A stretch of DNA of 64,000 nt from Calidithermus chliarophilus DSM 9957 (GTDB lineage Bacteria > Deinococcota > Deinococci > Deinococcales > Thermaceae): NCBI RefSeq assembly GCF_000430045.1, contig NZ_KE387026.1, forward strand, positions 74,844 through 138,843. Direction: 5' to 3'. A program made the position numbers and the translations under genes. Under the pieces are notes generated by a model. It was not told where the DNA came from. It saw only the letters and a program-made list of their open reading frames with translations, and did no database searches. The stretch's first letter is position 1, and every line of letters begins with the position of its first letter. Below are positions 14,557-37,021 of the stretch, piece by piece.

Positions 14557-16074
14557 CTACCGCACCTGCGGGAAGCCCAGGTCCACCTTGGAGGTGCTGG
14601 GGTCGGGCCAGCGGCTGGTGACCACCTTGGCGCGGGTGTAGAACTGCACGCCCTCGGGGCCGTACATGTGCAGGTCGCCGAAGAGGCTGGCCTTCCAGCC
14701 GCCGAAGCTGTAGTAGGCCACGGGGACGGGGATGGGCACGTTGATGCCCACCATGCCCGCCTCCACGTCGAACTGGAACTGGCGGGCCGCGCCGCCGTCG
14801 CGGGTGAAGATGGCGGTGCCGTTGCCGTAGGGGTGCTCGTTGACGAGCTTGAGGGCCTCCTCGTAGGTCTTGACCCGCACCACGCCCAGCACCGGGCCGA
14901 AGATCTCGTCGTCGTAGCACTTCATGCCCGGCTGCACGTTGTCGAGGAGCGAGGTGCCCAGGAAGAAGCCTTCACGCTGGCTCACCGCGTCCTGGCGGCC
15001 GTCCACCACCACCGTCGCGCCCTCCTTGGGGGCGTTCTCCACGTAGGAGGCCACCTTGTCGCGGTGCTCCTTGGAGATGAGGGGGCCCATCTCGTTGCCC
15101 TCCTCGAGCCCCGGCCCCACCTTGATCTTGGGCATGCGCTCCTTGATGGCCTCGATCAGGGGGTCGGCCACGTCGCCCACCGCCACCACGACCGAGATCG
15201 CCATGCAGCGCTCGCCCGCCGAGCCGTAGGCGGCCGAGACGGCGGCGTCGGCGGCCATGTTGACGTCGGCGTCGGGGAGCACGACCATGTGGTTCTTCGC
15301 CCCGCCCAGCGCCTGCACGCGCTTGCCGTTCTTGGTGCCGGTCTCGTAGATGTACTTGGCGATGGGGGTCGAGCCCACGAAGCTCACGGCCTTGACGTCG
15401 GGGTGCTCCAGGAGCCGGTCCACGGCCACTTTGTCCCCGTGCACCACGTTGAACACGCCGTCGGGCAGGCCCGCTTCCTTGAGCAACTCGGCGAGGTACA
15501 TGCTGGCCGAGGGGTCCTTCTCGGAGGGCTTGAGCACGAAGGTGTTGCCGCAGGCGATGGCGTTGGCGAACATCCACATCGGCACCATCGCGGGGAAGTT
15601 GAAGGGGGTGATGCCCGCCACCACGCCCAGGGGCTGGCGGATCTGGTACACGTCGATGCCGCGGCTAGCCTGTTCGGAGTAGCCGCCCTTGAGCAGGTTG
15701 GGGATGCCGCAGGCGAACTCGACGTTCTCCAGGCCGCGGGCCACCTCGCCCAGGGCGTCGGGGAGGGTCTTGCCGTGCTCGAGGGTGATGAGCTCGGCGA
15801 TCTTCTTGCGGTTGGCGTCGATGAGCTCGCGGAACTTGAACATGATCTCGGCGCGCCGCGAGAGGGGGGTTTGCCGCCAGCTCTTGAAGGCCTCCCGGGC
15901 AACGGCGACGGCGTGGTCCACCTCCTCCACGCTGGCGAAGTCCACGGCGGCCTGCTGGGCCCCGGTGGCCGGGTTCCACACCACCCCGCTGCGCCCGGAG
16001 TTCCCCTCCACGACTTTCCCGCCGATCCAATGCGACACGCGCTTGATGCCGACCTCAGGTTCTCTGACTGCCAT
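14557..16074 (-). CDS. mmsA: Methylmalonate/malonate-semialdehyde dehydrogenase (CoA-acylating)
   Basis: Aldehyde dehydrogenase family; N-terminus MAVREPEVGIKRVSHWIGGKVVEG; AGGAGG RBS immediately upstream of ATG 16074. Confidence 0.85.
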   Translation of the reverse strand: MAVREPEVGIKRVSHWIGGKVVEGNSGRSGVVWNPATGAQQAAVDFASVEEVDHAVAVAREAFKSWRQTPLSRRAEIMFKFRELIDANRKKIAELITLEHGKTLPDALGEVARGLENVEFACGIPNLLKGGYSEQASRGIDVYQIRQPLGVVAGITPFNFPAMVPMWMFANAIACGNTFVLKPSEKDPSASMYLAELLKEAGLPDGVFNVVHGDKVAVDRLLEHPDVKAVSFVGSTPIAKYIYETGTKNGKRVQALGGAKNHMVVLPDADVNMAADAAVSAAYGSAGERCMAISVVVAVGDVADPLIEAIKERMPKIKVGPGLEEGNEMGPLISKEHRDKVASYVENAPKEGATVVVDGRQDAVSQREGFFLGTSLLDNVQPGMKCYDDEIFGPVLGVVRVKTYEEALKLVNEHPYGNGTAIFTRDGGAARQFQFDVEAGMVGINVPIPVPVAYYSFGGWKASLFGDLHMYGPEGVQFYTRAKVVTSRWPDPSTSKVDLGFPQVR

Positions 16075-16163
16075 TTCGACCTCCTGGATGCTCAGGCTTG
16101 TGGGTGAAGGTAGGGTTGGTGGGTGCTCGAGTTGCCTCATGGTAGAACCCGGGGTGGGGCGGT

Positions 16164-16182
16164 GCAATGGACAATGTGTCTA
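16164..16182 (-). promoter_or_regulatory. Conserved operator-like motif GCAATGGACAatGTGTCTA upstream of mmsA
   Basis: Shares GCAATGGACA-N2-GTGT with the sites at 18389-18407 and 37112-37130; lies ~90 bp upstream of the mmsA start. Confidence 0.55.
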
Positions 16183-16235
16183 GACGAACGCCCGGCCGGC
16201 CGGCCGGGCGCTTTCTCACGGGACTGGATGCCCTC

Positions 16236-16363
16236 ATACCCGATTCGGTTAGTTCGTCCCCGAACGGCGGCGGGCTGAAAGGGCCGAAGGGAGGGCTCTG
16301 GGATTCAAAAAGATAGCCTCCGGGGCTCTTCGGATCGGATGATGATCTTTTTGAATCCGGTAT
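16236..16363 (-). mobile_element. MITE copy 1 (ATACCGG TIR family), reverse orientation, flanked by TCA/TCA
   Basis: TIRs TACCCGATTC...GAATCCGGTA; direct TCA on both sides; the right end overlaps the hemerythrin stop codon. Confidence 0.75.
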
Positions 16364-16794
16364 CAGGCCGCGCCGACGGGGGTACGGCCTCGCAATTGCA
16401 CGTCGATGTTGCAGATGTGCCCCACCAGCCAGTTTTTCAGCGTCCCGTGCAGTTCGCGCAGCATCTCGACGCTGGCCCCTCCGCGCGCTTTGTGCTGCTG
16501 GGTGAAGTCGGCGTAGAGCGCCAGGAAGCGGTCGTGCGCCTCCTTGTTCTTGCGGGCGATGGGGCAGCCCCGCAGCGTCATGCACAGCTCCTCGTAGGCG
16601 AAGTGGGTGTTGACGTAGCTCTCCAAGAACACCAAGAGGTTGTCCACCTCTTCGCGGTCCGCGGGGCTGCCGGGCGGGGTGGACTCGAGCAGGCGCTCGA
16701 GGCGGTTGACGTAGCCGACGAGGTTGCGGTGCTGCTCGTCGATGCGGGGTTCGCCGGTTTCATAGCTCGTGTTCCACTCGATCGCCATAGTCAC
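16363..16794 (-). CDS. Bacteriohemerythrin (hemerythrin HHE cation-binding domain protein)
   Basis: IDEQHRNLV...HFAYEE...HIC motifs typical of hemerythrin; 143 aa. Confidence 0.8.
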   Translation of the reverse strand: MTMAIEWNTSYETGEPRIDEQHRNLVGYVNRLERLLESTPPGSPADREEVDNLLVFLESYVNTHFAYEELCMTLRGCPIARKNKEAHDRFLALYADFTQQHKARGGASVEMLRELHGTLKNWLVGHICNIDVQLRGRTPVGAA

Positions 16795-16847
16795 GCTCCA
16801 ACGAGGCGAGTGTGACGAAAATACCGGGGAGGAATGTCCCCGGTAAT

Positions 16848-16966
16848 ACCAGGTTTGGGTGGATAGCCTCCGATCGGAGGCTATCCACCCCGACCGAAGG
16901 GAGTGCCCTGGGCTTCACAAAGATTTACCTCTGACGGATTTGAAGAGTATCTTTGTGAAGCCGGTA
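16848..16966 (+). mobile_element. MITE copy 2 (diverged; TACCAGG...CCGGTA), flanked by TAA/TAA; adjacent 24-bp mini-palindrome TACCGGGGAGGAATGTCCCCGGTA at 16822-16845
   Basis: Internal ttcacaaagat...atctttgtgaa inverted core, homologous to the ttcaaaaagat...atctttttgaa core of the other copies. Confidence 0.6.
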
Positions 16967-16996: not shown

Positions 16997-18334
16997 TCAA
17001 TCGGCCGCTACGGGCGTCCCCAGCATCTGATCCACGAGCGCCAGGCCCTCCTCGATGACGCTGAGGCCGTGCTCGAGCTCCTCCTGGTTGATCACCAGGG
17101 GCGGGCAGACCCACAGCATGTTGAAGCGGCTGAAGGCGTAGACGTGCTTGGACTTGACGTGCCCCGCCAGCTTCTGCATCTCGGGGCTGGTGCCGTTGAA
17201 GGGGGCCAGGGGCTCCTTGGTGGCCTTGTCGCGCACGAGCTCGAGCACGCTAAACAGCCCCTTGTAGCGCACGTCGCCCACGCAGGCGTACTTGCGCTTC
17301 ATGGCCTCGAGGCGCTCGGCGAGGTAGCGCCCCTGCACCTCGGTGTTCTCGAAGAGGTGCTCCTCCTCGTAGACCGAGAGGTTGGCGACGGCGGCGGCGC
17401 AGCTCACCGGGTGGCCGCTGTAGGTCAGGCCGCCCCAGAGCATGTTCTTCTCGAAGTAGTCGGCGATTTCCTGGCTCACGATCACGGCGCCCAAAGGCAT
17501 GTAGCCGCTGGTGAGGCCCTTGGCGCAGGTCACGATGTCGGGCTTGACGCCGTAGTGCTGGGTGGAGAGCCACTTGCCGGTGCGCCCGAAGCCCGACATC
17601 ACCTCGTCGGTGATGAGCAGGATGCCGTACTTGTCGCACAGCGCCCGCAGCTTGGGGTAGTAGTCGTCGGGGGGGACCAAGAGCCCGTTGGAGCCGGTGA
17701 TGCCCTCCACCAGGATCGCCGCGATGGTGTGCGGGCCCTCCATCTGGATGACCTCTTCGATGTGGCTCACGCACTCGCGGCGGCAAGAGTCGGGGGTCTT
17801 GCCGAAGGGGCAGCGGTAGCAGTAGGGGTCGAAGACCCGCACGATACCGGGGATGCCCGGCTCCACCGGCCAGCGGCGGGGGTCGCCGGAGGCGGTCATG
17901 GAGCCCATGGTCGCGCCGTGGTAGGAGCGGTAGCGGGTGATGATCTTGTCGCGCCCGGTGAAGAGCCGGGCCATCTTCATGGCGTTCTCGTTGGCCTCGG
18001 CCCCGCCCAGCGTGAAGAAGCTCTTGGCGAGGCCCGTGACCTCGGCCAGCTTCTTGCCGAGCTTCCCGCGCGGCTCGGTGGCGAAGGAGGGCCCGGCGAA
18101 GCAGAGCTCATCGACCTGCTTCTTGATGGCCTCGAGCACCTTAGGGTGCTGGTGCCCCACGTTGATGTTGATGAGCTGCGAGCTGAAGTCGAGCCACTTG
18201 TTGCCGTCGCCGTCCCAGAACCAAACCCCCTGGGCGTGCGTCATGTGGATGGGGTTCGAGGTGCTCTGCACCGACCAGGAGAAGAGGGTGTAGTCGCGGT
18301 TCTCCTGGATGACTTCCGACGAGGGACGTTCCAT
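16997..18334 (-). CDS. Class-III (omega) aminotransferase, probable beta-alanine:pyruvate transaminase
   Basis: PLP aminotransferase class III fold (GHQHPKV, CAKGLTSGYMPLG lysine motif); genomic context with mmsA and pyd genes. Confidence 0.8.
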   Translation of the reverse strand: MERPSSEVIQENRDYTLFSWSVQSTSNPIHMTHAQGVWFWDGDGNKWLDFSSQLININVGHQHPKVLEAIKKQVDELCFAGPSFATEPRGKLGKKLAEVTGLAKSFFTLGGAEANENAMKMARLFTGRDKIITRYRSYHGATMGSMTASGDPRRWPVEPGIPGIVRVFDPYCYRCPFGKTPDSCRRECVSHIEEVIQMEGPHTIAAILVEGITGSNGLLVPPDDYYPKLRALCDKYGILLITDEVMSGFGRTGKWLSTQHYGVKPDIVTCAKGLTSGYMPLGAVIVSQEIADYFEKNMLWGGLTYSGHPVSCAAAVANLSVYEEEHLFENTEVQGRYLAERLEAMKRKYACVGDVRYKGLFSVLELVRDKATKEPLAPFNGTSPEMQKLAGHVKSKHVYAFSRFNMLWVCPPLVINQEELEHGLSVIEEGLALVDQMLGTPVAAD

Positions 18335-18388
18335 AAGGACCTCCTGTGCCTTTGTTCCCCCAATGGTAGTCCCGGGAGGCGAGGGGAC

Positions 18389-18407
18389 GCAATGGACAGT
18401 GTGTAAA
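18389..18407 (-). promoter_or_regulatory. Conserved operator-like motif GCAATGGACAgtGTGTAAA upstream of the aminotransferase
   Basis: ~60 bp upstream of the start at 18334; the same decamer as at 16164 and 37112. Confidence 0.55.
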
Positions 18408-18453: not shown

Positions 18454-18951
18454 ATGCAAAACGGCGAGCCCCTGATCCGCCACGTCCTGACGACCTGGGA
18501 GGTCCACAACGGCATCCACCTCGCCCTCTTCGACGCCATCTCCCCCGCCGGCTTCGAGGCCGTGCCGCTGAAGTCGCGGGGGCGCACGGTGCTCGAGCAG
18601 TTCAACCACACCGTCTCGGTGCGGCTGGGCTGGGTGCAGTACCACCGCACGGGCAAGTTCCCCAGCCGCCGCACCCTCGAGCTGCCCGAGAACGTGCGGG
18701 AAGGCATAGCGCGGTCGGGGGAAGAGGTGCGGGCCTTCCTCGAGCAAGCCCTGGGGGGCGAGGCCAAGGTGCGCAACTTCGAGGGCAACCCGGTGCGCTT
18801 CATGGGCTACCTCATCTCGCACGAGTCGCACCACCGGGGCTCCGTCGCCCTGGCCCTCAAGCAGGCGGGCCTGAAGCTGCCCGAGGAGGTGGCGATGCAG
18901 GGCTTGTGGGGCCGGTGGATGTGGAAGTCGGGCAGCGGCGGCCAGGGCTAG
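18454..18951 (+). CDS. DinB/YfiT-like (DinB_2) metal-dependent hydrolase family protein
   Basis: HNGIHLA...LISHESHHRG histidine triad spacing typical of DinB_2. Confidence 0.7.
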   Translation: MQNGEPLIRHVLTTWEVHNGIHLALFDAISPAGFEAVPLKSRGRTVLEQFNHTVSVRLGWVQYHRTGKFPSRRTLELPENVREGIARSGEEVRAFLEQALGGEAKVRNFEGNPVRFMGYLISHESHHRGSVALALKQAGLKLPEEVAMQGLWGRWMWKSGSGGQG

Positions 18952-18961
18952 CCGAAGCTGA

Positions 18962-19259
18962 GCTTTCTACTCCCGGCCTGGCTCAACCCGCCGGCGAAGC
19001 CAGATGATGAATACCGCATTGGGGTCGGGTAGATATACCACGTTGTAGGGAAACTTCTTCATCTGCACGCGCCGAATCCCCACCGGGTGGATCTCGGGCG
19101 CGGCTTCGGGGACAGGTGGATGCCCGCCAGAAGCTCCCGGAAAGCGGCGACGAACTTCTGTCCCAGTCCTGGCGAAAGGTTCCGGTAGTGTTCGGGGGCT
19201 TGGATGAACTCGAGCCGAGCCTCAGGATGAAAAACCTCAGCCGAGCCGTGACTCGGCAT
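18962..19259 (-). pseudogene. ParE/RelE-family toxin, frameshifted (N-terminus in one frame to ~19120, C-terminus in the -1 frame ending 18962)
   Basis: N-terminal part MPSHGSAEVFHPEARLEFIQAPEHYRNLSPGLGQKFVAAFRELLAGI. C-terminal part in another frame AAPEIHPVGIRRVQMKKFPYNVVYLPDPNAVFIIWLRRRVEPGRE. Both resemble ParE. Confidence 0.5.
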
Positions 19260-19461
19260 CGCGCAGGACTTCCTCGACCGGAATTCCCTTCGCCTTGCCG
19301 CTGCGAAGTTCTTCAGCCCGGCGGACCGCCACCTCGAGCCAAGCCCGCTCGTACTCCTCGGGGCTGAGGTCTTCCAAGCTGTCAAGCAGCCACCGGGCCA
19401 GGTCAGCACGGTCTTTGTAGTCCAAGTCCAGGGCCTGCTCGAGCACCTGCTCCTTGCTCAC
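19237..19461 (-). CDS. Addiction-module antitoxin (TIGR02574-like, RelE/ParE partner)
   Basis: MSKEQVLEQALDLDYKDRADLARWLLDSLEDLSPEEYERAWLEVAVRRAEELRSGKAKGIPVEEV matches the putative addiction module component family. Confidence 0.7.
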   Translation of the reverse strand: MSKEQVLEQALDLDYKDRADLARWLLDSLEDLSPEEYERAWLEVAVRRAEELRSGKAKGIPVEEVLRDAESRLG

Positions 19462-19472: not shown

Positions 19473-19631
19473 ATACCGGATTCAAAAAGATAATCATCCG
19501 ATCCGAAGAGCCCGGAGGCTATCTTTTTGAATCCTAGAGCACACCCCTCCCTGACGGTCGGCGAAGAAAGCGTATCCCTTCGGTCGGGTTAGTCCGTCAC
19601 CGTTCGGTGACGAACTAACCGAATCTGGTAT
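19473..19631 (+). mobile_element. MITE copy 3, flanked by TTA/TTA
   Basis: TIRs ATACCGGATTC...GAATCTGGTAT; internal palindrome gattcaaaaagat...atctttttgaatc. Confidence 0.75.
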
Positions 19632-19641
19632 TACGCTACCC

Positions 19642-20352
19642 CTACCGCTTGAGCAGCTCGAGCGCCACCCACAGCCCCAGCCGGCGTTCGGTGCTGTCGA
19701 GGTCGCCCAGCATGCCCTGGAGCTGCTCGAGGCGGTAGTAGATGCTCTGCCGCCGCACCCCGAGCCGGCGTGCGGCCTCGGCGATGTTGAACTGCGAGGC
19801 GAGCAGGGCTTCGAGCGTGGAGAGCAGCGTCGAGCGCGGGCGGCTGGGCAGGGAGAGGATGGGCCCGAGCTGGCGCTGGAGGAAGCCCTGGCTGCGGCCG
19901 GTCTCGATCAGGGCGTCGAGAAGGGCCTGGAGCAGGGGCTCCTCGGCCTTGGGGCCGTGGGGGCGCAGGATGCGCTCGTGGGCGGCGCGGGTGAGGTCGG
20001 CGAAGCGCACCTCTGAGCGGAAGGCCAGGATGGGGAACTCGAGCAGCCGCGCGGTCTGCAAGAGCTCGGCGGGCACCTCCTGCATCCACTGGACGAGCTC
20101 GAGGGCCAGCCCGTGCGCCCCGGCCTGGGCCAGCGCGCGCAGGTAGGCGACCTGGGCCTCGGGCGTGGCGCGGGCGAGCTCGAGGCCCGTGCTCAGGATC
20201 AGCTCGCCCCCCGACAAAAAGCGCCAGGCGTCCATGACCTCCGCGACGTGGACCCAGGTGACGATCTGGTCGAGGCGGGAGTGGCCGGAGAGCAGTTCGG
20301 CCCCGGCGAAGGCGGGCAGCTCGAGGATCTGGCGCAGGGTGGGCAGGCTCAT
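19642..20352 (-). CDS. PucR/CdaR-family transcriptional regulator (short form)
   Basis: C-terminal FNIAEAARRLGVRRQSIYYRLEQLQ is a PucR-type HTH; start ATG 20352. Confidence 0.7.
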   Translation of the reverse strand: MSLPTLRQILELPAFAGAELLSGHSRLDQIVTWVHVAEVMDAWRFLSGGELILSTGLELARATPEAQVAYLRALAQAGAHGLALELVQWMQEVPAELLQTARLLEFPILAFRSEVRFADLTRAAHERILRPHGPKAEEPLLQALLDALIETGRSQGFLQRQLGPILSLPSRPRSTLLSTLEALLASQFNIAEAARRLGVRRQSIYYRLEQLQGMLGDLDSTERRLGLWVALELLKR

Positions 20353-20387: not shown

Positions 20388-22058
20388 TCAACCCCCCGCC
20401 AGCAGGCGGCGGCTCACCCGCCACAGCAGCTCGGGCAGGTGCTCGAAGGCGTAGGGCGCGTGCAGCCGCTCGGTGAACTGGTGGAAGTCGCGCCCCCAGG
20501 GGCCGATGTTGACGGCGGGAAGGCGCAGGGCACCTGCGAAGTCGAAGCGCCAGACGGGCCCGAAGGCCGGGGTGTTGGCCTGCATGGCCGCCACGCCCTC
20601 GGCGCTGTCGGCGCTGGCGAGGAAGCTCAGGTCGGAGATGCCGGTGAAGAAGGGGCGCACGCTGAAGCCCAGCCCGGTCTCCCGCGCCATGCGCCCGGCC
20701 TCCTCCTCCACCACCCGCCGCAGTAGCCGGTGGGCGGGGTCGGCGGGCTCGAGCGCGGCGATGGGGTAGTGCAGCGAGCCGAAGGCCAGCACCACCGCAG
20801 GGCCGGTCAGGCCGCTGTGGTCCCAGGCCCACTCGCACAGCCGGCGGCTGATCTGGGTGGGGGTCGCGCCGCCCTGGGCGAAGAGCTCGTCGCGGAGGGC
20901 GGCCAGGCGTTCGACGACCCCTTCCCCGCTATGTTCCCGTGCCGCCTGCAGCACCTCGGCGAAGGTGTACACCCCCACCTGCCAGACCGGCCCCGCAGGC
21001 AGCGGGTGGCCCAGGGCGGCGGCCCGCTCGAGCAAGACCCGCTGCCGCCGGGACCACTCCTCGAGCGCCCCCTCCACGGCCTCCTGCACCAGCCGCCGCC
21101 ACAGCTCGAGCACCTCGAGCGGGCTGCGCCGGGCCGAGAGCTGGTTGTAGACGCACCAGGCCCGGCCCGGCGTGGTCACGTCGTAGTGGGTCTTGAGGTC
21201 GAGGTGCTGCAGGCACACCGGGGGCGGGGCCACCTCGCCTTCGGCCTCGTCGGCCAGGTCGGGGTGGGCCTCGAGGCGGTAGGTGATGGCGGCGGCGAGG
21301 TAGGCGGCGCCCAGCCCGTCGAGCGGGTAGGCGGCGTGGGTCTCGCGCCCGATCACCAGCACGCTGGGCAGCAGCTTTCCCACGCTGCCCAGGTAGGCCG
21401 CACGGCCCAAGGTGCCGTCCCCCGCGTCGTTGGTGGCGTCGAGGTTGAGGGCGGCCACCAATTCCAGGCCCCCCTCCGCCAGCTCGCGCAGCCGCGCCGC
21501 CGCCGAGCGCATGCCGTGGGAGCTGTTCTCCTCGTCCGGGGTGGCGACGAGCAGGAGGTTGCCCACGCGCCCGGGGTCCTCGGCGTGCTCGAGCAGCACC
21601 GCCAACCCCGCCGCGATCCCGCTCTTCATGTCGAGCACGCCCCGGCCGGGGAGGAACTCGCCGCCGCTCAGGTCCTCCAGCGCCTTGCGGTCGCTCTCGG
21701 AGCGGGCGTTGGCCGCCAGCCACTCCCGCAGGCGCGGCAGCAGGGCCTCGGGGTCGCAGGCCCAGGGCTCGAGCTCTGTGTAGTTGGCGGTGCTCACCAC
21801 GTCGTAGTGCCCGGCCAGCACCACCGTCCGGGCGCCCGATCCGCGCACCAGGGCGAAGAGGTTGTAGCGCTCGCGAGGGTCGCCCTGGGTGCGCTCGAGC
21901 CAGAGGTCGTGGGGGCTGGCCTGGAAGTAGGGGTGCTTCGCCAGCAGGTCGCGCAGGAAAGGGGCGAAGTCGCGCTCGCCCGGGGTGTCGGTGACGCTGG
22001 GTTGCTGGACCAGGGCCAGGGTGAGGGAACGGGTTCGGTCGTGCCAGCGCGAAGGCAT
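20388..22058 (-). CDS. M20 family metallopeptidase (RocB-like)
   Basis: GHYDVVST, DMKSGIAAG, PDEENSSHG motifs of peptidase M20. Confidence 0.7.
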   Translation of the reverse strand: MPSRWHDRTRSLTLALVQQPSVTDTPGERDFAPFLRDLLAKHPYFQASPHDLWLERTQGDPRERYNLFALVRGSGARTVVLAGHYDVVSTANYTELEPWACDPEALLPRLREWLAANARSESDRKALEDLSGGEFLPGRGVLDMKSGIAAGLAVLLEHAEDPGRVGNLLLVATPDEENSSHGMRSAAARLRELAEGGLELVAALNLDATNDAGDGTLGRAAYLGSVGKLLPSVLVIGRETHAAYPLDGLGAAYLAAAITYRLEAHPDLADEAEGEVAPPPVCLQHLDLKTHYDVTTPGRAWCVYNQLSARRSPLEVLELWRRLVQEAVEGALEEWSRRQRVLLERAAALGHPLPAGPVWQVGVYTFAEVLQAAREHSGEGVVERLAALRDELFAQGGATPTQISRRLCEWAWDHSGLTGPAVVLAFGSLHYPIAALEPADPAHRLLRRVVEEEAGRMARETGLGFSVRPFFTGISDLSFLASADSAEGVAAMQANTPAFGPVWRFDFAGALRLPAVNIGPWGRDFHQFTERLHAPYAFEHLPELLWRVSRRLLAGG

Positions 22059-24285: not shown

Positions 24286-24320
24286 AAGGGGGGCGAACCT
24301 CGAGGTTCGCCCCTACGTTC
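24286..24320 (-). terminator. Intrinsic terminator-like hairpin (GGGGCGAACCTCGAGGTTCGCCCC + T5) directly upstream of the RBS of the 23031-24275 gene
   Basis: On the minus strand the stem is followed by CCTTTTTCGGAGGAGTGATG, so the hairpin plus T-run abuts the SD. Confidence 0.5.
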
Positions 24321-30559: not shown

Positions 30560-31381
30560 CTACTCCTGCACGTCAAAGCCGTGCCCCTTGCGCAAGGCCT
30601 CGCGCACCTGGGTGGCGATCTCGAAGAAGCGGGTGGTCTCGCGGGTCTCGAAGTTGCGCGGCTGCGGCAGGTCCACCGGGATCACGGTCTCGATCTTGCC
30701 GGGGCGCGGGGTCATGACCACGATGCGCGTGGAGAGGAACACCGCCTCGGGGATGGAGTGGGTGACGAAGATGATGGTCTTGCCGGTCTCGCGCCACAGC
30801 CGCAAGAGCTCGAGGTTGAGGTTCTCCCGCGTGATCTCGTCGAGCGCGCCGAAGGGCTCGTCCATGAACAGGAGCTGCGGGTCGAAGGCCAGCGCGCGGG
30901 CGATGCTCACCCGCTGCTGCATCCCGCCCGAGAGCTGCCAGGGGTAGTGGCGGGCGAACTTCTCCAGCCCCACCAGCGCCAGCATGCGCTCGGCGCGGGG
31001 TTTGTGCTCGGCCTTGGGCACGCCCATCACCTCCAGCGGCAGCATCACGTTCTGCAGCACGGTGCGCCACTCCATGAGGGTAGGGGCCTGGAAGACGTAG
31101 CCGTAGGCCCGGCTCTTGCGCGCCTCCTCCGGGGTCTTGCCGCCGACGCGGATGCTGCCGGAGGTGGGCTGGATCAGGTCGGCCAGCAGGCGCAGCAGGG
31201 TGGTCTTGCCGCAGCCCGAGGGCCCGATGAGCGAGATGAACTCGCCCGCGGCGATCTCGAGGCTCGCGTTCTGCAGAGCCACGGTGCCGGTGGGGAACAC
31301 CATCGAGACGTCCTTCACCGACACCAGACTGGCGGCGCTGGGGGTTGGGTGGGGGTTGGTCTGGGATTGGGTCACAGGCAC
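30560..31381 (-). CDS. ABC transporter ATP-binding protein (NitT/TauT family)
   Basis: GPSGCGKTT Walker A, LSGGMQQRVSIARAL signature, Walker B. Confidence 0.85.
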   Translation of the reverse strand: MPVTQSQTNPHPTPSAASLVSVKDVSMVFPTGTVALQNASLEIAAGEFISLIGPSGCGKTTLLRLLADLIQPTSGSIRVGGKTPEEARKSRAYGYVFQAPTLMEWRTVLQNVMLPLEVMGVPKAEHKPRAERMLALVGLEKFARHYPWQLSGGMQQRVSIARALAFDPQLLFMDEPFGALDEITRENLNLELLRLWRETGKTIIFVTHSIPEAVFLSTRIVVMTPRPGKIETVIPVDLPQPRNFETRETTRFFEIATQVREALRKGHGFDVQE

Positions 31382-31397: not shown

Positions 31398-32030
31398 TTA
31401 CTCTACCCCCCCGCCGGTCAGCGCCGCGGCCACGCCTAACCCGATGTACACGCTGCCGGTGACGTACTTCTGCCTCGCCACGAAGCGCGGGTTGCGGCGG
31501 AACCAGGAGCCCAGGCTGCCGGCCAGCAGGGCGTATGAGCCGTCGGAGAGCACGGCCATCAAGGCGAACAGGCCGCCCAACAGCAGGATCTGCACCGCCA
31601 CGCTGCCGTGGGCAGGGTCCACGAACTGCGGCAGGAAGGCGAAGGTGAAAAAGGCCATCTTGGGGTTGAGCAGGTTGACCACGTAGCCCTGCGCGAAGAT
31701 GCGGCCCAAGCTCTCGCGCTTCGGCTCGACCACCCCCGCCTCGCCCCCGGACGTCAGTTGCCGCACCCCCAGGTACACCAGATAGGCCGCCCCCGCCCAC
31801 TTCACCAGGTTGAAGGCCAGGGCGCTGGCCAACAGCAGGGCGGTGAGGCCCAAAGCCGCCGCCAGGGTGTAGGTGAGGGCCGCCAGGTTGACGCCCAGCA
31901 CCGAGGCGAGGCCCGCTGAGCGCCCCTGCGAGAGGCTGCGGGTCACGATGTAGAGCACCGCCGGGCCGGGCACCAGCAGGATAGCCAGGCTGGCGGCGAA
32001 GAACAGGGCGAGCTTCTCGGGCGCGATCAC
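31398..32030 (-). CDS. LysE/RhtB family amino-acid exporter
   Basis: FFAASLAILLVPGPAVLYIVTRSLSQGRSAG N-terminus typical of the LysE family. Confidence 0.8.
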   Translation of the reverse strand: MIAPEKLALFFAASLAILLVPGPAVLYIVTRSLSQGRSAGLASVLGVNLAALTYTLAAALGLTALLLASALAFNLVKWAGAAYLVYLGVRQLTSGGEAGVVEPKRESLGRIFAQGYVVNLLNPKMAFFTFAFLPQFVDPAHGSVAVQILLLGGLFALMAVLSDGSYALLAGSLGSWFRRNPRFVARQKYVTGSVYIGLGVAAALTGGGVE

Positions 32031-32121: not shown

Positions 32122-32277
32122 CTACCTTTTCCGGGCCCGGGCCGCCCCGATAGCCATAAATGCCGCCCCGACGGCCAGGAACGCCGCCCCGGAACTCCGC
32201 TGGTCGCTGAGCGAGATCGCACCGACCGCCATAAGGATTAGACCTGCCAGGAAAAATAACTGGGACGGCTTCATATA
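32122..32277 (-). CDS. Speculative 51-aa two-helix membrane peptide immediately downstream of pydB
   Basis: ATG 10 nt after the pydB stop; MKPSQLFFLAGLILMAVGAISLSDQRSSGAAFLAVGAAFMAIGAARARKR; not in the ORF track (below length cutoff); no clear SD. Confidence 0.25.
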   Translation of the reverse strand, partial: YMKPSQLFFLAGLILMAVGAISLSDQRSSGAAFLAVGAAFMAIGAARARKR

Positions 32278-32281: not shown

Positions 32282-33661
32282 TCAGAAGTACATCGGCTCG
32301 CGCCGCAGGAGTTTGCCGCGCCCCTTCTCGCCCACGAAAGCCCCGTCGCGCACCTGCACCTTGCCGCGCACCGTCACCACGCTGGGACGCCCGTCGATCT
32401 CGAAGCCCTCGAAGCCGTTGTAGTCGTTGTTCACGTGCTGGGTGCGGGCCGAGATGGTGCCGCGGTAGCTGGGGTCGTAGACCACCAGGTCGGCGTCGGA
32501 GCCCACCGCGATGGTGCCCTTGCGGGGGAAGAGCCCGAAGAGTTTGGCGGCCTTGGTGCTGGCGGCGTCCACGAAGCGGTGGAGGTCGAGGTGGCCCCGG
32601 CTCACGCCGTAGGTGTAGAGCAGGTTCACCCGGTCCTCGATGGCGGGGATGCCGTTGGGGATGGCGGTGAAGGCGTCCTTGCCCAGCATCTTCTGCTCGG
32701 TGTCGAAGGGGCAGTGGTCGGTGCCCACGGTGTCGATGAAGCCCTGGGCCAGCGCGTCCCACAAGGCCTTCTGGTTGCGCTTGTCGCGCAGGGGCGGCGA
32801 CATGATGTACTTCATGGCCTCCACCCCGCCCCGCTCGGCGTAGGTCTTGTCCAACAGGAAGTGCGGGATCACCGACTCGATGTAGATGGGCACGCCGCGC
32901 GCCTTGGCCGCCATGGCCGCCTCGAGCGCGGGCTTGCAGGAGAGGTGCACCACGTAACCGGTGGCGCCGGTGGCCTCGAGGAAGGTGGCGAAACGGTTCG
33001 TCCCCTCGGCCTCCACGGACTCGGGACGGCTGGGCTCGTGCCACTCGGGGCCGGTCTTGCCCTCGGCCAGCAGGCTCTGCTGCAAGCGCCCCACCAGTTC
33101 GGCGTTCTCGCAGTGCGCGGTGACGATGACGCCCAGCTCCTTCGCCAGCCTCATCGTCTGGTACATCTCCCCGTCGTCCACGCCGAAGAAGTTCTTGTAC
33201 GACAGGAAGATCTTGAAGGAGTTGATCCCGTCGGCCACGATCTCGCGGAGCTGGGCCTCGGTCTTGTCGTCGAACTTCGTCACCGACATGTGGAAGGTGT
33301 AGTCGCAGGCGCTGTTGCCCTCGGCCCGGCTCTTCCACAGGTGGTAGCCCTCGAGCGCGTCGTCACCCCGCGAGGGGCAGCACATCTCGATGTAGGTGGT
33401 CGTACCCCCCACCAGCGCGGCGATGCTGCCGGTCTCGTGGGTGTCCTTGGCGAAGGTCGCCATGAAGGGCAGGTAGATGTGCACGTGGGGGTCGATGAAG
33501 CCGGGAAAGACGTACTTGCCCGTCGCGTCGATGACCTCGGTGCCGGGGGGGGCCTCGAGGCCCCGCCCGATGCGGGTGATGGTCTCGTCCTCGACGTAGA
33601 TGTCGGCTTTGTAGCGTGAGTCTGCGGTGACGATTTCGCCGTTTTTGATGAGTAGAGGCAT
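32282..33661 (-). CDS. pydB: Dihydropyrimidinase (D-hydantoinase)
   Basis: MPLLIKNGEIVTAD...PGFIDPHVHIYLPF; cyclic amidohydrolase family; start ATG 33661. Confidence 0.85.
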   Translation of the reverse strand: MPLLIKNGEIVTADSRYKADIYVEDETITRIGRGLEAPPGTEVIDATGKYVFPGFIDPHVHIYLPFMATFAKDTHETGSIAALVGGTTTYIEMCCPSRGDDALEGYHLWKSRAEGNSACDYTFHMSVTKFDDKTEAQLREIVADGINSFKIFLSYKNFFGVDDGEMYQTMRLAKELGVIVTAHCENAELVGRLQQSLLAEGKTGPEWHEPSRPESVEAEGTNRFATFLEATGATGYVVHLSCKPALEAAMAAKARGVPIYIESVIPHFLLDKTYAERGGVEAMKYIMSPPLRDKRNQKALWDALAQGFIDTVGTDHCPFDTEQKMLGKDAFTAIPNGIPAIEDRVNLLYTYGVSRGHLDLHRFVDAASTKAAKLFGLFPRKGTIAVGSDADLVVYDPSYRGTISARTQHVNNDYNGFEGFEIDGRPSVVTVRGKVQVRDGAFVGEKGRGKLLRREPMYF

Positions 33662-33700
33662 ACGGGTGAAAAGGTGAAAAGGTGAAAAGGTAAAAAGCAC
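33662..33700. repeat. GGTGAAAAG x3 tandem octamer tract (left arm of the inverted repeat flanking the four-helix-bundle gene)
   Basis: ggtgaaaaggtgaaaaggtgaaaaggtaaaaag; inverted partner at 34150-34200; similar hairpin at 35610-35683. Confidence 0.65.
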
Positions 33701-33746
33701 GCGTTCGCTACCCTGTCACCTTCCGACCTTTGACCTCCTTTCGATG

Positions 33747-34139
33747 CTATTCCTTTGCCCTATGGCCATCCCGTTGCTCGCGTACCGAAGTTTGAAGCCT
33801 GCTGATCAGCCTGGAAACCTCCTCGGCCTGTTTGAGCAGCTTGTCGAAGGCAGGCGGCTCGAGGTAGCCCACGTCGAGTGCAACGTAGAGTTGCGACCTC
33901 AATTCGGCACAGGACGCCTTCGCGACGTTCAGAAACCGATGAAGCTCGGCTCGTCCCCCACGTTCGAAGCCCTCTGCGATATTGGACATCACCGAAACGG
34001 CCGCTCGCTGAGCCTGGCCGCTCAGGGCGTAGTCTTTCGAAAAGGCTGCTTGCCTGGTGGCTACGTACACGGCTCTGGTCAGCTCCCTCGCCTTTTGCCA
34101 GACGAATAAGTCCTCGAATCGCTCAACCTTCTTCGACAT
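33747..34139 (-). CDS. Four-helix-bundle protein (TIGR02436 family, formerly 23S rRNA intervening-sequence protein)
   Basis: FEDLFVWQKARELTRAVY...SGQAQRAAVSVMSNIAEGFERGG...FLNVAKASCAELRSQLYVALDVGYL matches the family consensus. Confidence 0.75.
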   Translation of the reverse strand: MSKKVERFEDLFVWQKARELTRAVYVATRQAAFSKDYALSGQAQRAAVSVMSNIAEGFERGGRAELHRFLNVAKASCAELRSQLYVALDVGYLEPPAFDKLLKQAEEVSRLISRLQTSVREQRDGHRAKE

Positions 34140-34195
34140 TTCCTGCGTTCTTCACCTTTGCCCTTTTTGACTTTTCACCTTTTTACCTTCTTCAC

Positions 34196-35581
34196 CTAGT
34201 GAATGTCGATCCCAACCTCTTTGCGGTACCGCTCCATGGCCTCCCAGTCCGAGCCCACCTCCGGGCGGGCCTTGGTGAGCTGGTCCCAGGTGACGCTGGC
34301 GCGGCCCGAGGGCACCTCGACCATCTCGATGCAGCCTTCCACCGGGCAGACGTTGTGGCACAGCCGGCAGCCCACGCAGTCCTCCTCGCGCACCACCGGC
34401 TGCGGGCGCGAGCCCACGGCCTCGAGCTTGCCGTTGGAGCGCACGTCGTAGCTGTAGGGCTGCACCAGGTTCCCGTTCGCGTCCACCAGGTCGATGCACT
34501 GGTGGGCGGTGTCGTTGCAGGCCACGTAGCAGAGGTTGCACTTGATGCACTTGTCGGGGTCGATGCGGGCGACGGCGCGGAAGGCGAGGTCGAAGTCCTT
34601 GAAGTCGGAGATGCGGTGCAGGCTCTTGCCCACCACCTCGTCCACGCTCTTGAAGCCCTTGGAGTCCATCCAGTTGGAAAGCCCGTCGCAGAGGTCCTCG
34701 ATGATGCGGTAGCCGTAGTGCATCACGGCGGTGCACACCTGCAGGCTGCTGGCCCCCAGCAGCAAGAACTCGGCGGCGTCCTTCCAGGTGCTGATGCCGC
34801 CCATGCCCGAGATGGGCAGCCCCGAGCGGCGCACCACCTCGTCGGTGCCCAGGGCCGAGAGCATGTTGAGCGCGATGGGCTTGACCGCCGGGCCCGCGTA
34901 GCCCCCGTGCCCGCCCTTTCCGCCGATGTTGGGGGTGATCTCGAGCGTATCCAAGTCCACGGCCACGATGGAGTTGATGGTATTGATGAGGCTGAGCGCG
35001 TTGGCCCCGGCGTTCACGGCGGCGCGGGCCGGGTAGACGATGTTGGTGATGTTGGGCGTGAGCTTGACGATCACGGGGATCTTGGCCACGTCCATCACCC
35101 ACCGCGTGATCTGCTCGCAGTACTCCGGCACCTGCCCTACCGCGCTGCCCATGCCGCGCTCGCTCATGCCGTGCGGGCAGCCGTAGTTGAGCTCGATGCC
35201 GTCGGCGCCGGTGTCCTCGATCTTGAGGACGATGTCGCGCCAGGCCTCGGGCGTGGACTCCACCATGGCCGAAACGATCACCGCGCGGTCGGGCCAGTGG
35301 CGCTTGACGTCGCGGATCTCCCGGAGGTTGACCTCCAAGGGCCGGTCGGAGATGAGCTCGACGTTGTTGATGGCGAGCATCTTCTGCCCGCCGTAGTGCC
35401 ACGCGCCGTAGCGGTTGGACACGTTGAGCACCGGCGCCCCGATGGTCTTCCACACCGCCCCGCCCCAGCCGTACTCGAAGGCCTTGTGGATCTGCGCCCC
35501 CGAGTTCGTCGGCGGCGCCGAGGCCAGCCAGAAGGGGTTGGGGGACCGGATTCCCGCGAAATTGATGCGAAGGTCAGCCAT
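34196..35581 (-). CDS. preA: NAD-dependent dihydropyrimidine dehydrogenase subunit PreA (DHOD-like domain + 2x[4Fe-4S])
   Basis: MADLRINFAGIRSPNPFWLASAPP...ELNYGCPHG...CIKCNLCYVACND; GGAG RBS 7 nt upstream of ATG 35581. Confidence 0.85.
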   Translation of the reverse strand: MADLRINFAGIRSPNPFWLASAPPTNSGAQIHKAFEYGWGGAVWKTIGAPVLNVSNRYGAWHYGGQKMLAINNVELISDRPLEVNLREIRDVKRHWPDRAVIVSAMVESTPEAWRDIVLKIEDTGADGIELNYGCPHGMSERGMGSAVGQVPEYCEQITRWVMDVAKIPVIVKLTPNITNIVYPARAAVNAGANALSLINTINSIVAVDLDTLEITPNIGGKGGHGGYAGPAVKPIALNMLSALGTDEVVRRSGLPISGMGGISTWKDAAEFLLLGASSLQVCTAVMHYGYRIIEDLCDGLSNWMDSKGFKSVDEVVGKSLHRISDFKDFDLAFRAVARIDPDKCIKCNLCYVACNDTAHQCIDLVDANGNLVQPYSYDVRSNGKLEAVGSRPQPVVREEDCVGCRLCHNVCPVEGCIEMVEVPSGRASVTWDQLTKARPEVGSDWEAMERYRKEVGIDIH

Positions 35582-35609
35582 AAATGCTCCTTTCAGGGAA
35601 GGTGAAAAG

Positions 35610-35683
35610 TGGAAAAGGTAAAAGGTCAAAAGTAAAGTCCAGGTCTTTAACTTTTCACCCTTTACCCTTTTGACCTTTTCACC
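35610..35683. repeat. Imperfect ~32-bp-arm inverted repeat (GGTGAAAAG-type) between preT and preA
   Basis: ggtgaaaagtggaaaaggtaaaaggtcaaaag ...loop... cttttcaccctttacccttttgaccttttcacc. Confidence 0.65.
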
Positions 35684-37021
35684 TCAATCATCCGCCGCCG
35701 CGCGAAGCGGCACCAGCTTGCGGTGGATGGCGAAGGCCGCGAGCTTGCCGTCCTCCACCGCCATCACCGTCGAGGCCGAGCCCTTCGCCCGCACGCAGTC
35801 GCCGCCCGCGTACACGCCGGAGAGGCTGGTCTCGAAGTCGTCGTTGACCTTGATGTAGCCCTTCTCGGTCTGCAGCCCCAGCATCTGCGCCAGCGCGGGT
35901 TTCTCCTGCCCGATGGCCTTGACCACCTGGTCGGCGGGGAGCACGAACTCCGAGCCGGGGACGGGCCGCGGCGCCGGGCGGCCCGAGGCGTCCGGGGCGC
36001 CGAGCTCCATCCGCACGCACTCGAGCCCCGTCACCTTCCCGCCCTCGACGATCACGCGCACCGGCTGGGTGAGGAAGCGGAACTCGATGCCCTCCTTCTT
36101 GGCGAACTCGTACTCGTGGGGATAGGCGGTCATCTCGGCGTCGGTGCGGCGGTAGACCATGGTCACGCGCTCGGCGCCCAGCCGCTTGGCGACGGTGGCG
36201 CAGTCGATGGCGGTGTTGCCCGCACCGATCACCGCCACGTTGCGGCCCACCTCGAGGCCCTGCGGGTTCATCTTGCTGGCCTCGATGTAGCTCAGGCCGT
36301 CGACGATGTGCTCCTCACCGGGGATGCCCAGCGCAGGCACCGCGCCCAGCCCCACGCTCAGGAAGACCGCGTCGTACTCGCGGCGGATCTGCTCGAAGGA
36401 GAGGTTGGCTCCCAGCTCCATGCCGGTCTTCACCTCCACCCCCAGCCGCTTGACCATCTCCACCTCGGCCAGCGCCACCTCCACCGGCTCGCGCAGCACG
36501 ATGATGCCGTAGGTCGAGAGCCCCCCGGGCAGCTCGCGCTTCTCGAAGACCGTCACGCTGTGCCCCAGCTTGGCGAGCTCCCCCGCGCAGGTGAGCCCCG
36601 CCGGGCCCGCGCCGATCACCGCGACCTTCTTGCCGGTGGGGGGCCCTGCCTTGAACACGTCGATGCCCCGGCTGTACACGTAGTCGGTGGCGTAGCGCTG
36701 CAGGCGCCCGATCATGATGGGCTTCTCCTCGGCGTTGAGCACGCACGCGCCTTCGCACAGCTCCTGCACCGGGCACACCCGGGCGCACGTCGCGCCCATG
36801 AGGTTGGCCTCGAGGATGGTGCGGGCCGAGCCCACCACGTTCTCGGTGGCGATCTTCTTGATGAACTTGGGGATGTCGATGTGGGTGGGGCAGGCGTGGG
36901 TACAGGGCGCGTCGTAGCAGTAGAGGCAGCGGTTGGCCTCCACCACCGCTTCATGGTCGGTGAGCGGCGGGTAGTACTCCGCCAACACCTCCTCAGGCCG
37001 GATAATCTGGCGATCGTTCAC
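35684..37021 (-). CDS. preT: Dihydropyrimidine dehydrogenase subunit PreT (glutamate-synthase small-subunit-like NAD(P)H oxidoreductase)
   Basis: CLYCYDAPCTHACPTHIDIPKFI...VAVIGAGPAGLTCAGELAKLGHSVTVFEKRELPGG. Confidence 0.85.
   Translation of the reverse strand: MNDRQIIRPEEVLAEYYPPLTDHEAVVEANRCLYCYDAPCTHACPTHIDIPKFIKKIATENVVGSARTILEANLMGATCARVCPVQELCEGACVLNAEEKPIMIGRLQRYATDYVYSRGIDVFKAGPPTGKKVAVIGAGPAGLTCAGELAKLGHSVTVFEKRELPGGLSTYGIIVLREPVEVALAEVEMVKRLGVEVKTGMELGANLSFEQIRREYDAVFLSVGLGAVPALGIPGEEHIVDGLSYIEASKMNPQGLEVGRNVAVIGAGNTAIDCATVAKRLGAERVTMVYRRTDAEMTAYPHEYEFAKKEGIEFRFLTQPVRVIVEGGKVTGLECVRMELGAPDASGRPAPRPVPGSEFVLPADQVVKAIGQEKPALAQMLGLQTEKGYIKVNDDFETSLSGVYAGGDCVRAKGSASTVMAVEDGKLAAFAIHRKLVPLRAAADD

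Follow-up and report, generated by a model that had tools for sequence, protein, structure and literature searches.

The reductive degradation of pyrimidine bases is a textbook pathway, and the known bacterial gene clusters for it (Pyd clusters) comprise PydA1/A2, PydB, PydC, PydD and MSDH or PydE (PMC7332683). Here we describe the locus found at positions 14557–37021 of a 64 kb stretch of Calidithermus chliarophilus DSM 9957 DNA (contig NZ_KE387026.1, positions 74,844 to 138,843; this whole stretch is called the window below). Its core enzymes are those of the known pathway, with the same enzyme set and the same order of reactions as in the Pyd clusters exemplified by Brevibacillus agri (Yin et al. 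2019, as summarised in PMC7332683). Unlike the described clusters, the Calidithermus locus also encodes a cytosine-type deaminase and two importer modules that depend on binding proteins, its candidate ureidopropionase belongs to the M20 type, and several unrelated genes are inserted. The best explanation for the whole, which we consider probable, is that of a chromosomal locus for the uptake of free pyrimidine bases and their degradation to acyl-CoA by the Pyd pathway. Two features appear to be new, the presence of two import systems apparently depending on one motor protein and an unreported RNA element located before the cluster.

Several parts of the locus resemble other described systems. 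The dihydropyrimidine dehydrogenase PreT/PreA of E. coli has the same two-subunit architecture, and the PreA model was passed here at the equivalog level. The E. coli preTA genes, unlike the Calidithermus preT-preA pair, lie outside any catabolic cluster, and the physiological role of PreT/PreA was stated as unknown (PMC7332683). In E. coli codBA, as here, uptake is genetically coupled to a CodA-type deaminase. The E. coli system uses an NCS1 permease, whereas the Calidithermus locus uses a NitT/TauT-type ABC importer with a ThiY-like substrate-binding protein (SBP), and its deaminase carries Ser in place of Asp314. The same serine is present in the CodA homologue Kpn00632 of Klebsiella pneumoniae (structures 4r7w, 4r85 and 4r88; Hitchcock et al. 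2014, cited in PMC6186785), the genomic setting of which differs from that of the Calidithermus CodA, whose activity is predicted here. In the searchable literature, no experimentally characterised importer of the NMT1/ThiY binding-protein-dependent type was found for free pyrimidine bases. Dihydropyrimidinase genes located beside ABC transporter genes had been noted earlier, without characterisation (PMC3546935).

Core Enzymes and Conservation of the Gene Order

The window has a GC content of approximately 68%, and the mechanical list of its open reading frames (ORFs) was crowded with spurious frames. The real genes were chosen by third-position GC, retaining one coding frame per stretch, and then compared to Pfam and NCBIfam. 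Nearly all the real genes between the mmsA stop and the preT start, which are the two ends of the locus, are on the minus strand. The genes and their order on this strand, as listed by the original prediction (a first reading of the same DNA), were borne out gene for gene by these three approaches. The additional items were a degraded toxin-antitoxin (TA) pair, a DinB gene on the plus strand, a membrane ORF of 50 amino acids (aa) and the regulatory elements described below. As compared to the over-extended ORFs of the list, the start codons of preA, of the dihydropyrimidinase gene and of mmsA were reset to the ATG at 35580, 33661 and 16074, respectively.

The PreT/PydA1-like subunit of the dihydropyrimidine dehydrogenase (FAD/NAD(P)H and Fe-S; 35684–37021) was recognized by the Pfam domains Fer4_20 and Pyr_redox_2, and showed 37% identity to E. 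coli PreT and 66–67% to the orthologues of Deinococcus and bacterium HR40. Curated cut-offs were passed by the second subunit, PreA/PydA2 (FMN and Fe-S; 34196–35580; NF006183, 667 bits vs a cut-off of 335), by the dihydropyrimidinase PydB (32282–33661; TIGR02033, 528 bits vs 393), for which allantoinase models stayed below their cut-offs, and by the cytosine deaminase CodA (29280–30557; NF005748, 454 bits vs 438). They were also passed by an M20 carbamoylase-family amidase, the putative beta-ureidopropionase PydC (23031–24275; TIGR01879, 293 bits vs 204), by a class-III aminotransferase at the level of the subfamily (16997–18334; NF004718, 540 bits vs 472), which is PydD-like and probably a beta-alanine/beta-aminoisobutyrate transaminase, and by MmsA, the CoA-acylating malonate/methylmalonate-semialdehyde dehydrogenase (MMSDH; 14557–16074; TIGR01722, 757 bits vs 448). 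All these genes are on the minus strand. The PDB neighbours of the M20 amidase were an N-carbamoyl-L-amino-acid hydrolase, which was the best, an N-carbamoyl-beta-alanine amidohydrolase and the yeast beta-alanine synthase. The best PDB match of the aminotransferase was the taurine:2-oxoglutarate aminotransferase 6jix (E = 3e-117); this enzyme and MMSDH were found to belong to the Pyd set at the family level.

By these family assignments, CodA would deaminate cytosine to uracil, or 5-methylcytosine to thymine, and the split dihydropyrimidine dehydrogenase would reduce uracil or thymine, probably with NADPH. The ring would be opened by the dihydropyrimidinase, and the M20 amidase would release beta-alanine or beta-aminoisobutyrate together with NH3 and CO2. 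The class-III aminotransferase would then form malonate or methylmalonate semialdehyde, from which MmsA would produce acetyl-CoA or propionyl-CoA; enzymes of the MMSDH family accept both semialdehydes. A route from cytosine and uracil to acyl-CoA with its own uptake, originally proposed as leading to acetyl-CoA, is supported and fits all the family assignments and the synteny across two phyla. The dehydrogenase had also been called NAD-dependent: its two-subunit PreT/PreA nature stood, and the NAD part proved to be only a database name. Where beta-2 of the dinucleotide fold ends, the PreT-like subunit shows VYRR vs VAREE in E. coli PreT, and a YRR motif is typical of NADPH-using enzymes of the GltD type. 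The Pyd-pathway enzymes studied to date use NADPH (PMC7332683). Because of this motif and of these precedents, NADPH seems a better guess than NADH for the cofactor of PreT/PreA.

Related loci were obtained by exact-protein look-ups, by a genome scan with an SBP1 alignment and by a metagenome scan, and the proteins of the window were mapped onto them by tblastn. Among these loci, L014 designates Calidithermus roseus, L016 Meiothermus granaticius, L015 and L063 Meiothermus metagenome-assembled genomes (MAGs) and L007 Deinococcus peraridilitoris. The core order was kept in C. roseus, in three Meiothermus genomes, in D. peraridilitoris, in bacterium HR40 and in alphaproteobacterial MAGs. Because the order is conserved across these genomes, the gene cluster is judged to be more than a chance juxtaposition. 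D. peraridilitoris possesses a compact preT-preA-dihydropyrimidinase-ATPase-permease-permease-SBP-M20-PucR-aminotransferase-aldehyde dehydrogenase run, and HR40 keeps this order through M20. The cluster ends with M20-PucR-aminotransferase-mmsA in M. granaticius and in a Meiothermus MAG, and the PucR gene is kept between the amidase and aminotransferase genes in L007, L014, L016 and L063.

Two Importers of Separate Origin and a Single ATPase Gene

The transporter genes, all on the minus strand, form a tightly packed run with gaps of 2–34 nt and one ATPase gene (30560–31381, TauB-like). The ATPase gene is followed by that of CodA and by permA (28473–29276), SBP1 (27455–28438), permB (26585–27448), permC (25608–26597), which overlaps permB by 13 nt, and SBP2 (24361–25446). 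The best Pfam and NCBIfam hits were those of a NitT/TauT-family ABC importer, with a TauB/SsuB-like ATPase, BPD_transp_1 permeases and NMT1/SsuA-like SBPs. Both SBPs, which are 96–97% identical to their C. roseus counterparts, were modelled with a periplasmic-binding fold and with 21–24 disordered and hydrophobic first residues, as expected of a signal peptide. They share only 31% identity.

These genes had been interpreted as one importer with an odd stoichiometry of two binding proteins to three permeases. BLASTP orthology and gene order point instead to two translocator modules with a single ATPase gene. The ATPase was 83% identical to that of HR40 and 74% to the ATPase of the Deinococcus pyd cluster, vs 46–50% to the ATPases of a second gene set, a four-gene cassette CodA-permease-SBP-ATPase that stands alone in approximately 35 genomes (Armatimonadota, Rokubacteria/Methylomirabilota, 'Fervidifonticultor' and others). 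PermB and permC corresponded to the first (65–66% identity) and second (59–64%) permeases of the Deinococcus and HR40 pyd clusters, and SBP2 was 70–72% identical to its Deinococcus and HR40 orthologues (58–72% for SBP2, permB and permC together). PermA was 58–59% identical to the stand-alone cassette permeases vs 30–35% to permB and permC, and SBP1 was 56–61% identical to the cassette SBPs (54–62% for its orthologues in the cassette genomes). CodA likewise has its orthologues in the cassette, the range for SBP1, permA and CodA together being 56–61%. A simpler importer set, made of the ATPase, permB, permC and SBP2, exists in Deinococcus and HR40, and permB, permC and SBP2 are likewise complete without permA in contigs L074, L075 and L078. 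No pyd genes were found near the stand-alone cassettes among those whose neighbouring genes were examined. In the window, CodA-permA-SBP1 is an ATPase-less copy of the cassette placed between the pyd ATPase gene and permB, with junctions of 2 nt and 6 nt. The comparison of genomes shows that the transporter is a chimera of two importers of separate origin.

The fused order, always with a single ATPase gene, was found in C. roseus, M. granaticius, two Meiothermus MAGs and four alphaproteobacterial MAG contigs (L021, L022, L024 and L025, binned as Alphaproteobacteria/Geminicoccaceae; 70–82% identity). The own ATPase of the cassette is absent in all fused loci, in which the one pyd-type ATPase gene accompanies three permease genes. 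On a Deinococcus MAG fragment (L023), only the ATPase-CodA-permA-SBP1 segment was visible. In two Rokubacteria MAGs, a complete cassette is immediately preceded by a pyd-like transporter set, both having an ATPase of their own, and this arrangement is a plausible precursor state of the fusion. The fused loci imply one fusion event followed by transfer between phyla. The comparison also indicates that the cluster itself was transferred between phyla, the binning of the MAGs being taken as given. Between the Thermaceae and contigs L021, L022, L024 and L025 or L009 (HR40), the protein identity was 58–83% for the cluster with or without the CodA cassette.

From the gene content, the two importers appear to share one ATPase, and we propose the following organization. 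Cytosine or 5-methylcytosine would enter through a homodimer of permA supplied by SBP1, uracil or thymine would enter through a permB/permC heterodimer supplied by SBP2, and the single pyd-type ATPase would drive both translocators. The MsiK-type ATPases are a known example, from other systems, of one ATPase serving several permease sets. That the two binding proteins reflect two substrates, as suggested in the original prediction, is backed by the comparative genomics, SBP1 and permA being associated with CodA, and SBP2, permB and permC with preT-preA-dihydropyrimidinase.

The best sequence and fold matches of both SBPs were the formylaminopyrimidine (FAMP)-binding ThiY of the ThiXYZ importer (3ix1) and a thiamin-binding SBP of C. 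difficile (4nmy). The AlphaFold model of SBP1 (predicted local distance difference test, pLDDT, 88) had 3ix1 then 4nmy as best fold matches, and that of SBP2 (pLDDT 89) 4nmy then 3ix1. These proteins have in common the NMT1/THI5-like fold, the ABC family and pyrimidine-ring ligands, and the fold neighbours of the models are compatible with such ligands, although the solved relatives include no binder of uracil or cytosine. They differ in that the identity is approximately 20% and that the conserved neighbours here are pyrimidine catabolic enzymes. A thiamine-salvage function was rejected, given these neighbours and as tenA, thiD and ylmB were not found in the cluster.

A strong hairpin similar to a terminator (24290–24313, minus strand; GGGGCGAACC...GGTTCGCCCC followed by a T-run) is present inside the operon, directly 3' of SBP2. 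It may lead to an excess of binding-protein transcript over the downstream genes. Another hairpin of this kind lies 3' of mmsA (14515–14540). Overall, scans of the window for sigma-70 and terminator consensus sequences performed no better than on shuffled sequence, and only single hairpins at gene ends are cited here.

The CodA Deaminase and 5-Methylcytosine

The CodA protein encoded by the first gene of the inserted cassette matched the solved structures of E. coli CodA at E = 1e-114, and the top PDB hit was the engineered D314S mutant. The E. coli residues His61, His63, His214, Asp313, Gln156, Glu217 and His246 are all conserved. The same metal and catalytic residues are kept in 43 related CodA wherever the alignment covers them, with the exception of a Tyr at His61 in L056. 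The position of E. coli Asp314 is occupied by Ser307, and a serine is found at this site in 43/43 cassette-linked CodA. Asp314 leaves CodA essentially unable to deaminate 5-methylcytosine, its replacement by Ala gives 5-methylcytosine deamination, and the Klebsiella 5-methylcytosine deaminase carries Ser at this site (PMC6186785, citing Hitchcock et al. 2014). In view of these reports, and because all the cassette-linked CodA have the serine, we predict that the enzyme accepts cytosine and 5-methylcytosine, feeding uracil and thymine into the pathway. The originally proposed conversion of cytosine and uracil to acetyl-CoA keeps its place as a route and loses its exclusivity: with a serine at the Asp314 site, a flux from 5-methylcytosine and thymine to propionyl-CoA would be as likely.

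An Operator-Like Motif and the PucR-Family Regulator

An operator-like motif of 18 nt, GACAC-N-TTGTCCATTGCG, has three matches in the 64 kb, vs 0.07 expected. All are on the coding strand (minus), at 54–107 nt upstream of preT, of the aminotransferase gene and of mmsA. The copy at 37111–37128 (GACACTTTGTCCATTGCG) is 90 nt upstream of preT, overlaps a −35-like TTGCGT and is conserved in L014 and L015. The second, at 18388–18405, 54 nt upstream of the aminotransferase gene, is conserved in L014, L016 and L063, and the third is at 16163–16180, 89 nt upstream of mmsA. In each case the motif overlaps a −35-like hexamer, and TAGCCT or TACCAT is found 17–18 nt further on. The motif is kept upstream of preT and/or of the aminotransferase gene in C. 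roseus, M. granaticius and two Meiothermus MAGs. In the relatives, mmsA directly follows the aminotransferase gene. In the window, the two are separated by the hemerythrin gene and MITE-like repeats, and the promoter region of the aminotransferase gene is repeated before mmsA, as the alignment of both regions shows. GGACA half-sites were also seen upstream of the Deinococcus aminotransferase gene (L007).

The shared motif supports the co-regulation of preT, the aminotransferase gene and mmsA. A lack of co-regulation had been named at the outset as an observation that would go against the original reading, and the occurrence of the motif (three copies for 0.07 expected) speaks for such a regulation. 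The short PucR-family protein of the cluster (236 aa; 19642–20352, minus strand), which matches PF07905 (PucR; E = 8e-34) and PF13556 (HTH_30; E = 8e-15) and is devoid of the central domain, would bind to it.

Weighing the Alternatives

The points that weigh against an uptake and degradation locus for pyrimidines are of several kinds. Every substrate assignment derives from homology and from the neighbouring genes. Broad specificity marks the families of both the M20 amidase and the aminotransferase, and the latter has a taurine:2-oxoglutarate enzyme as its closest solved relative. In bit scores, CodA stands a little nearer to its E. coli counterpart (388 bits) than to the 5-methylcytosine deaminase of Klebsiella (340 bits), which makes the serine a single-site argument. 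An unlinked ATPase located elsewhere in the genome could be the partner of permA. With fold matches of approximately 20% identity, the pairing of each binding protein with a base is a proposal, and the PucR-type protein is a candidate regulator of the motif.

It might first be considered that the CodA cassette acts on another amino-heterocycle, such as isoguanine, creatinine, an s-triazine or an aminopyrimidine of the thiamine type, and that its placement among the pyd genes is incidental. The closest solved relatives of both SBPs bind FAMP or thiamin, the next relatives of CodA are AtzC-type triazine hydrolases (E = 1e-43), E. coli CodA also deaminates isoguanine, and the stand-alone cassettes do not adjoin pyrimidine genes. 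However, the far closer match to E. coli CodA, with all the active-site residues retained except at position 314, the passing of the NCBIfam cytosine-deaminase cut-off and the fixation of the cassette at the same pyd position in two phyla, where the uracil or thymine that it yields feeds the next enzyme, make this unlikely.

A single importer of odd stoichiometry containing all three permeases and both SBPs, or the use of both SBPs by permB/permC with a redundant permA, would account for the tight gene run and its only ATPase gene, and two SBPs per translocator are known in the case of HisJ and ArgT, which share HisQMP. This possibility is distinctly improbable considering that permA and SBP1 are paired with their own ATPase, and with no other permease, in approximately 35 genomes, that the permB/permC/SBP2 set does without permA in the five loci cited above (Deinococcus, HR40, L074, L075 and L078), and that ABC importers have two transmembrane subunits.

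We give very little credence to a hydantoin-utilisation (hyu) system, in which a D-hydantoinase and a carbamoylase would act on 5-substituted hydantoins or N-carbamoyl amino acids. The TIGR02033 model does bear the name 'D-hydantoinase', an N-carbamoyl-L-amino-acid hydrolase is the closest solved relative of the M20 amidase, and earlier work has treated dihydropyrimidinases beside ABC transporter genes as hydantoinases (PMC3546935). On the other hand, preT/preA, the beta-alanine-type aminotransferase gene and mmsA, which have no role in hydantoin conversion, are conserved in several genera, and the Pfam and NCBIfam scans found no hydantoin racemase, NCS1 hydantoin permease or D-carbamoylase among the cluster genes. 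The association of a D-hydantoinase with an L- or beta-specific M20 carbamoylase would moreover be stereochemically mismatched for 5-substituted hydantoins. A purine/allantoin catabolic cluster, evoked by the PucR-family regulator and by hits of the M20 amidase to 'allantoate amidohydrolase' models and of the cyclic amidohydrolase to allantoinase models, is hardly conceivable, as these hits are below the cut-offs (336 vs 399 and 245 vs 358 bits, respectively), the dihydropyrimidinase and carbamoylase-family models pass theirs, and no xanthine dehydrogenase, uricase or ureidoglycolate genes were found in the cluster by the same scans. Both readings were rejected for these reasons.

A Conserved Leader RNA Element Upstream of preT

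A conserved element resembling a PyrR-binding loop lies upstream of preT (37258–37300, minus strand, with an invariant core at 37265–37296). Its core of 31 nt, GGTTAARTCRGCTCCNGNGAGGGCNCGRACC, has one match in the window and is also upstream of preT in L014, L015, L016 and L063. An exact-pattern scan of metagenomes retrieved 18 contigs (L069–L086): in 14 of them a preT homologue begins 50–170 nt downstream, and the other four end within approximately 340 nt of the element. The 18 metagenome and five genome copies made a set of 23 sequences, 15 of which are distinct and were aligned. The invariant positions amount to 25 of the 31 in the core, and the flanks could not be aligned. Pair 6–38, which adjoins the invariant lower stem on its outer side, is seen as GU, AU, CG and GC; a proposed pair 16–31 is mostly G.A and is not supported. 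A promoter-like sequence, TTGACA-17-TATATT, is located upstream of the element.

By inspection, the hairpin shares with the Rfam PyrR consensus (RF00515) the CNGNGA hexaloop, the UAA 5' bulge and an upper stem AG(C)UC/GG(G)CU, of which the two N positions of the loop are the only ones to vary in the 15 aligned sequences. The following terminator is also a feature common to the PyrR attenuators. The preT leader differs from RF00515 by one extra base pair and a bulged C. As compared to the PyrR attenuators, it offers no room for a separate antiterminator, its binding hairpin overlaps the base of the terminator, and it precedes a catabolic and uptake operon, not a biosynthetic one. RF00515 gave no hit at E <= 10 on 36950–37450, and at the gathering thresholds the Rfam hits in the window were limited to three tRNAs. 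With a covariance model derived from five preT leaders, the pyrR leader of the window came at rank 10 with only 8.6 bits (E = 1.7). Because RF00515 had no hit on the preT leader and the model of the preT leaders had no significant hit on the pyrR leader, membership of the PyrR family is unproven and is not claimed. The hairpin alone is thermodynamically unsupported (z = −0.07), as is the second terminator-like hairpin of the window (z = +0.24). The case for the element rests on its conservation and on covariation in the alignment.

On the 3' side of the element, most Meiothermus sequences have an intrinsic terminator, and L072 and L082 a hairpin sequestering the Shine-Dalgarno (SD) sequence. 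Calidithermus has a hairpin (z = −3.0) that sequesters the SD of a possible leader ORF, and a further terminator-like hairpin. In all three types of platform, the 3' strand of the lower stem, AACCN, is the 5' base of the 'off' hairpin. The lower stem of the leader would therefore compete with the downstream 'off' hairpin, and because AACCN is common to both, a stabilised element would switch expression on. Such an ON logic is opposite to the canonical PyrR attenuation and would fit a catabolic operon; we offer it as a hypothesis.

The window also contains pyrR itself (9596–10165; 257 bits vs 138, NCBIfam), whose leader includes a PyrR-loop-like hairpin and a terminator (~9590–9610) and scores 49 bits with RF00515, below the gathering score of 54. 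The region 9500–14327, which adjoins the catabolic cluster, is devoted to de novo pyrimidine biosynthesis, with the pyr leader, pyrR, pyrB and pyrC on the plus strand. Just downstream of mmsA, pyrD and a beta-carbonic anhydrase gene are on the minus strand. On the other side of the cluster, a divergent ORF of 180 aa (37369–37911, plus strand) starts with a lipoprotein-like signal (...LLAACSS) and has no Pfam or NCBIfam match. It occupies the same position in C. roseus (44% identity) and on contig L076 (89%).

Taken together, a more far-reaching scheme can be put forward as tentative. The leader would be a reverse-wired PyrR loop, or a PyrR-like one, turning the operon ON when pyrimidine nucleotides are plentiful, so that salvage would take precedence and the excess would be degraded, while the same protein would shut the neighbouring pyr biosynthetic operon. 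At the same time the CodA(Ser314)-permease-SBP cassette would constitute an undescribed ABC system that imports cytosine and 5-methylcytosine with the help of a borrowed ATPase.

Inserted Elements, Repeats and Remnants

The locus had been presented as a 22-kb pathway supercluster. The core genes deserve this description; about a third of the length appears, from the comparison with relatives, to be lineage-specific insertion (the four-helix-bundle gene, DinB, DUF1905, the 556-aa M20-like protein, the TA pair and hemerythrin), and LysE is less clear-cut. The four-helix-bundle gene, M20-556 (20388–22058), the TA pair, the plus-strand DinB gene (18454–18951) and the bacteriohemerythrin gene (16363–16794, minus strand, NCBIfam), an accessory insertion bracketed by MITE-like repeats, are absent from D. 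peraridilitoris, HR40, M. granaticius and the compared Meiothermus MAG. The minus-strand accessory block, identified with Pfam, consists of M20-556, DUF1905 (22087–22419) and a DinB gene (22398–22925). The DinB/DUF1905 pair is common only to the window and C. roseus; the whole block is absent in L016, L063 and L007, and M20-556 also in L014. The hemerythrin gene is absent in L016, L063 and L007. The gene of the LysE/RhtB-family exporter (31398–32030, minus strand; Pfam LysE), also considered accessory, is absent in C. roseus and M. granaticius, and is found at the same position in the Meiothermus-like contigs L074, L075 and L078; a functional link, for example the export of a beta-amino acid, is possible. 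Between it and the dihydropyrimidinase gene, and directly after the latter, lies the hydrophobic ORF of 50 aa (32122–32274, minus strand; MKPSQLFFLAGLILMAVGAISL...), which has a homologue at the same place in the Meiothermus MAG L015.

The gene of the four-helix-bundle protein (33747–34139, minus strand; PF05635/TIGR02436) belongs to an inserted element (33665–34195, minus strand), in which it is flanked by inverted arms made of purine repeats (34151–34195 and 33665–33697; inverted repeats I9 and I12). This element is absent in L014, L015, L016 and L063, and one of the same type, with a homologous gene and analogous arms, is found at the preT-preA junction in L073 (~1430–1950). In the window, the preT-preA spacer (35581–35683, minus strand) forms a hairpin of 8-nt purine repeats (GGTGAAAAG) and their complement, with a fold energy of −37.9 kcal/mol (z = −6.3; 0/200 shuffles as stable), which is also present in C. 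roseus. The arms around the four-helix-bundle gene contain the same 8-nt repeats, and the preT-preA hairpin is the 'empty' version of the element. The protein family is that of the '23S rRNA intervening sequence protein', and the element recalls the ORF-bearing intervening sequences of 23S rRNA. It looks like a mobile stem-loop cassette.

The preA-dihydropyrimidinase junction is a hot spot of insertion. The four-helix-bundle gene occupies it in the window (33662–34195), an insert of 601 nt with an ORF in C. roseus (L014, 5067–5668), an insert of 1187 nt with ORFs in a Meiothermus MAG (L063, 4195–5382) and 227 nt in M. granaticius (L016, 5264–5491), the other relatives having only 16–56 nt. A family of palindromic repeats resembling miniature inverted-repeat transposable elements (MITEs) or repetitive extragenic palindromes (REPs), with four copies of the core CCGGATTCAAAAAGAT...GAAGAGCCC in the window, was observed at 16236–16363, 19473–19634, 16843–16902, 40732–40769 and 49706–49743. 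Two inverted copies bracket the genes of hemerythrin, the aminotransferase and DinB and the TA remnant. This remnant (18970–19461, the pair itself at 19059–19461, minus strand) consists of an intact 'Unstab_antitox' antitoxin gene (19237–19461) and of a ParE/RelE-like toxin gene split by a frameshift.

Significance

The locus offers a clean case, open to testing, in which two ABC importers that differ in origin depend on a single ATPase gene. The evolutionary intermediates are visible, from the stand-alone cassette to adjacent transporters with two ATPases and to the fused form with one. SBP1, SBP2 and CodA are thermostable candidates for nucleobase sensing or for prodrug (5-fluorocytosine) work. 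The existence of a whole clade of transporter-linked CodA with the serine permissive for 5-methylcytosine points to environmental 5-methylcytosine and thymine as nutrients. The leader element, if true, would extend the PyrR-type RNA control from biosynthesis to catabolism, possibly with an inverted logic.

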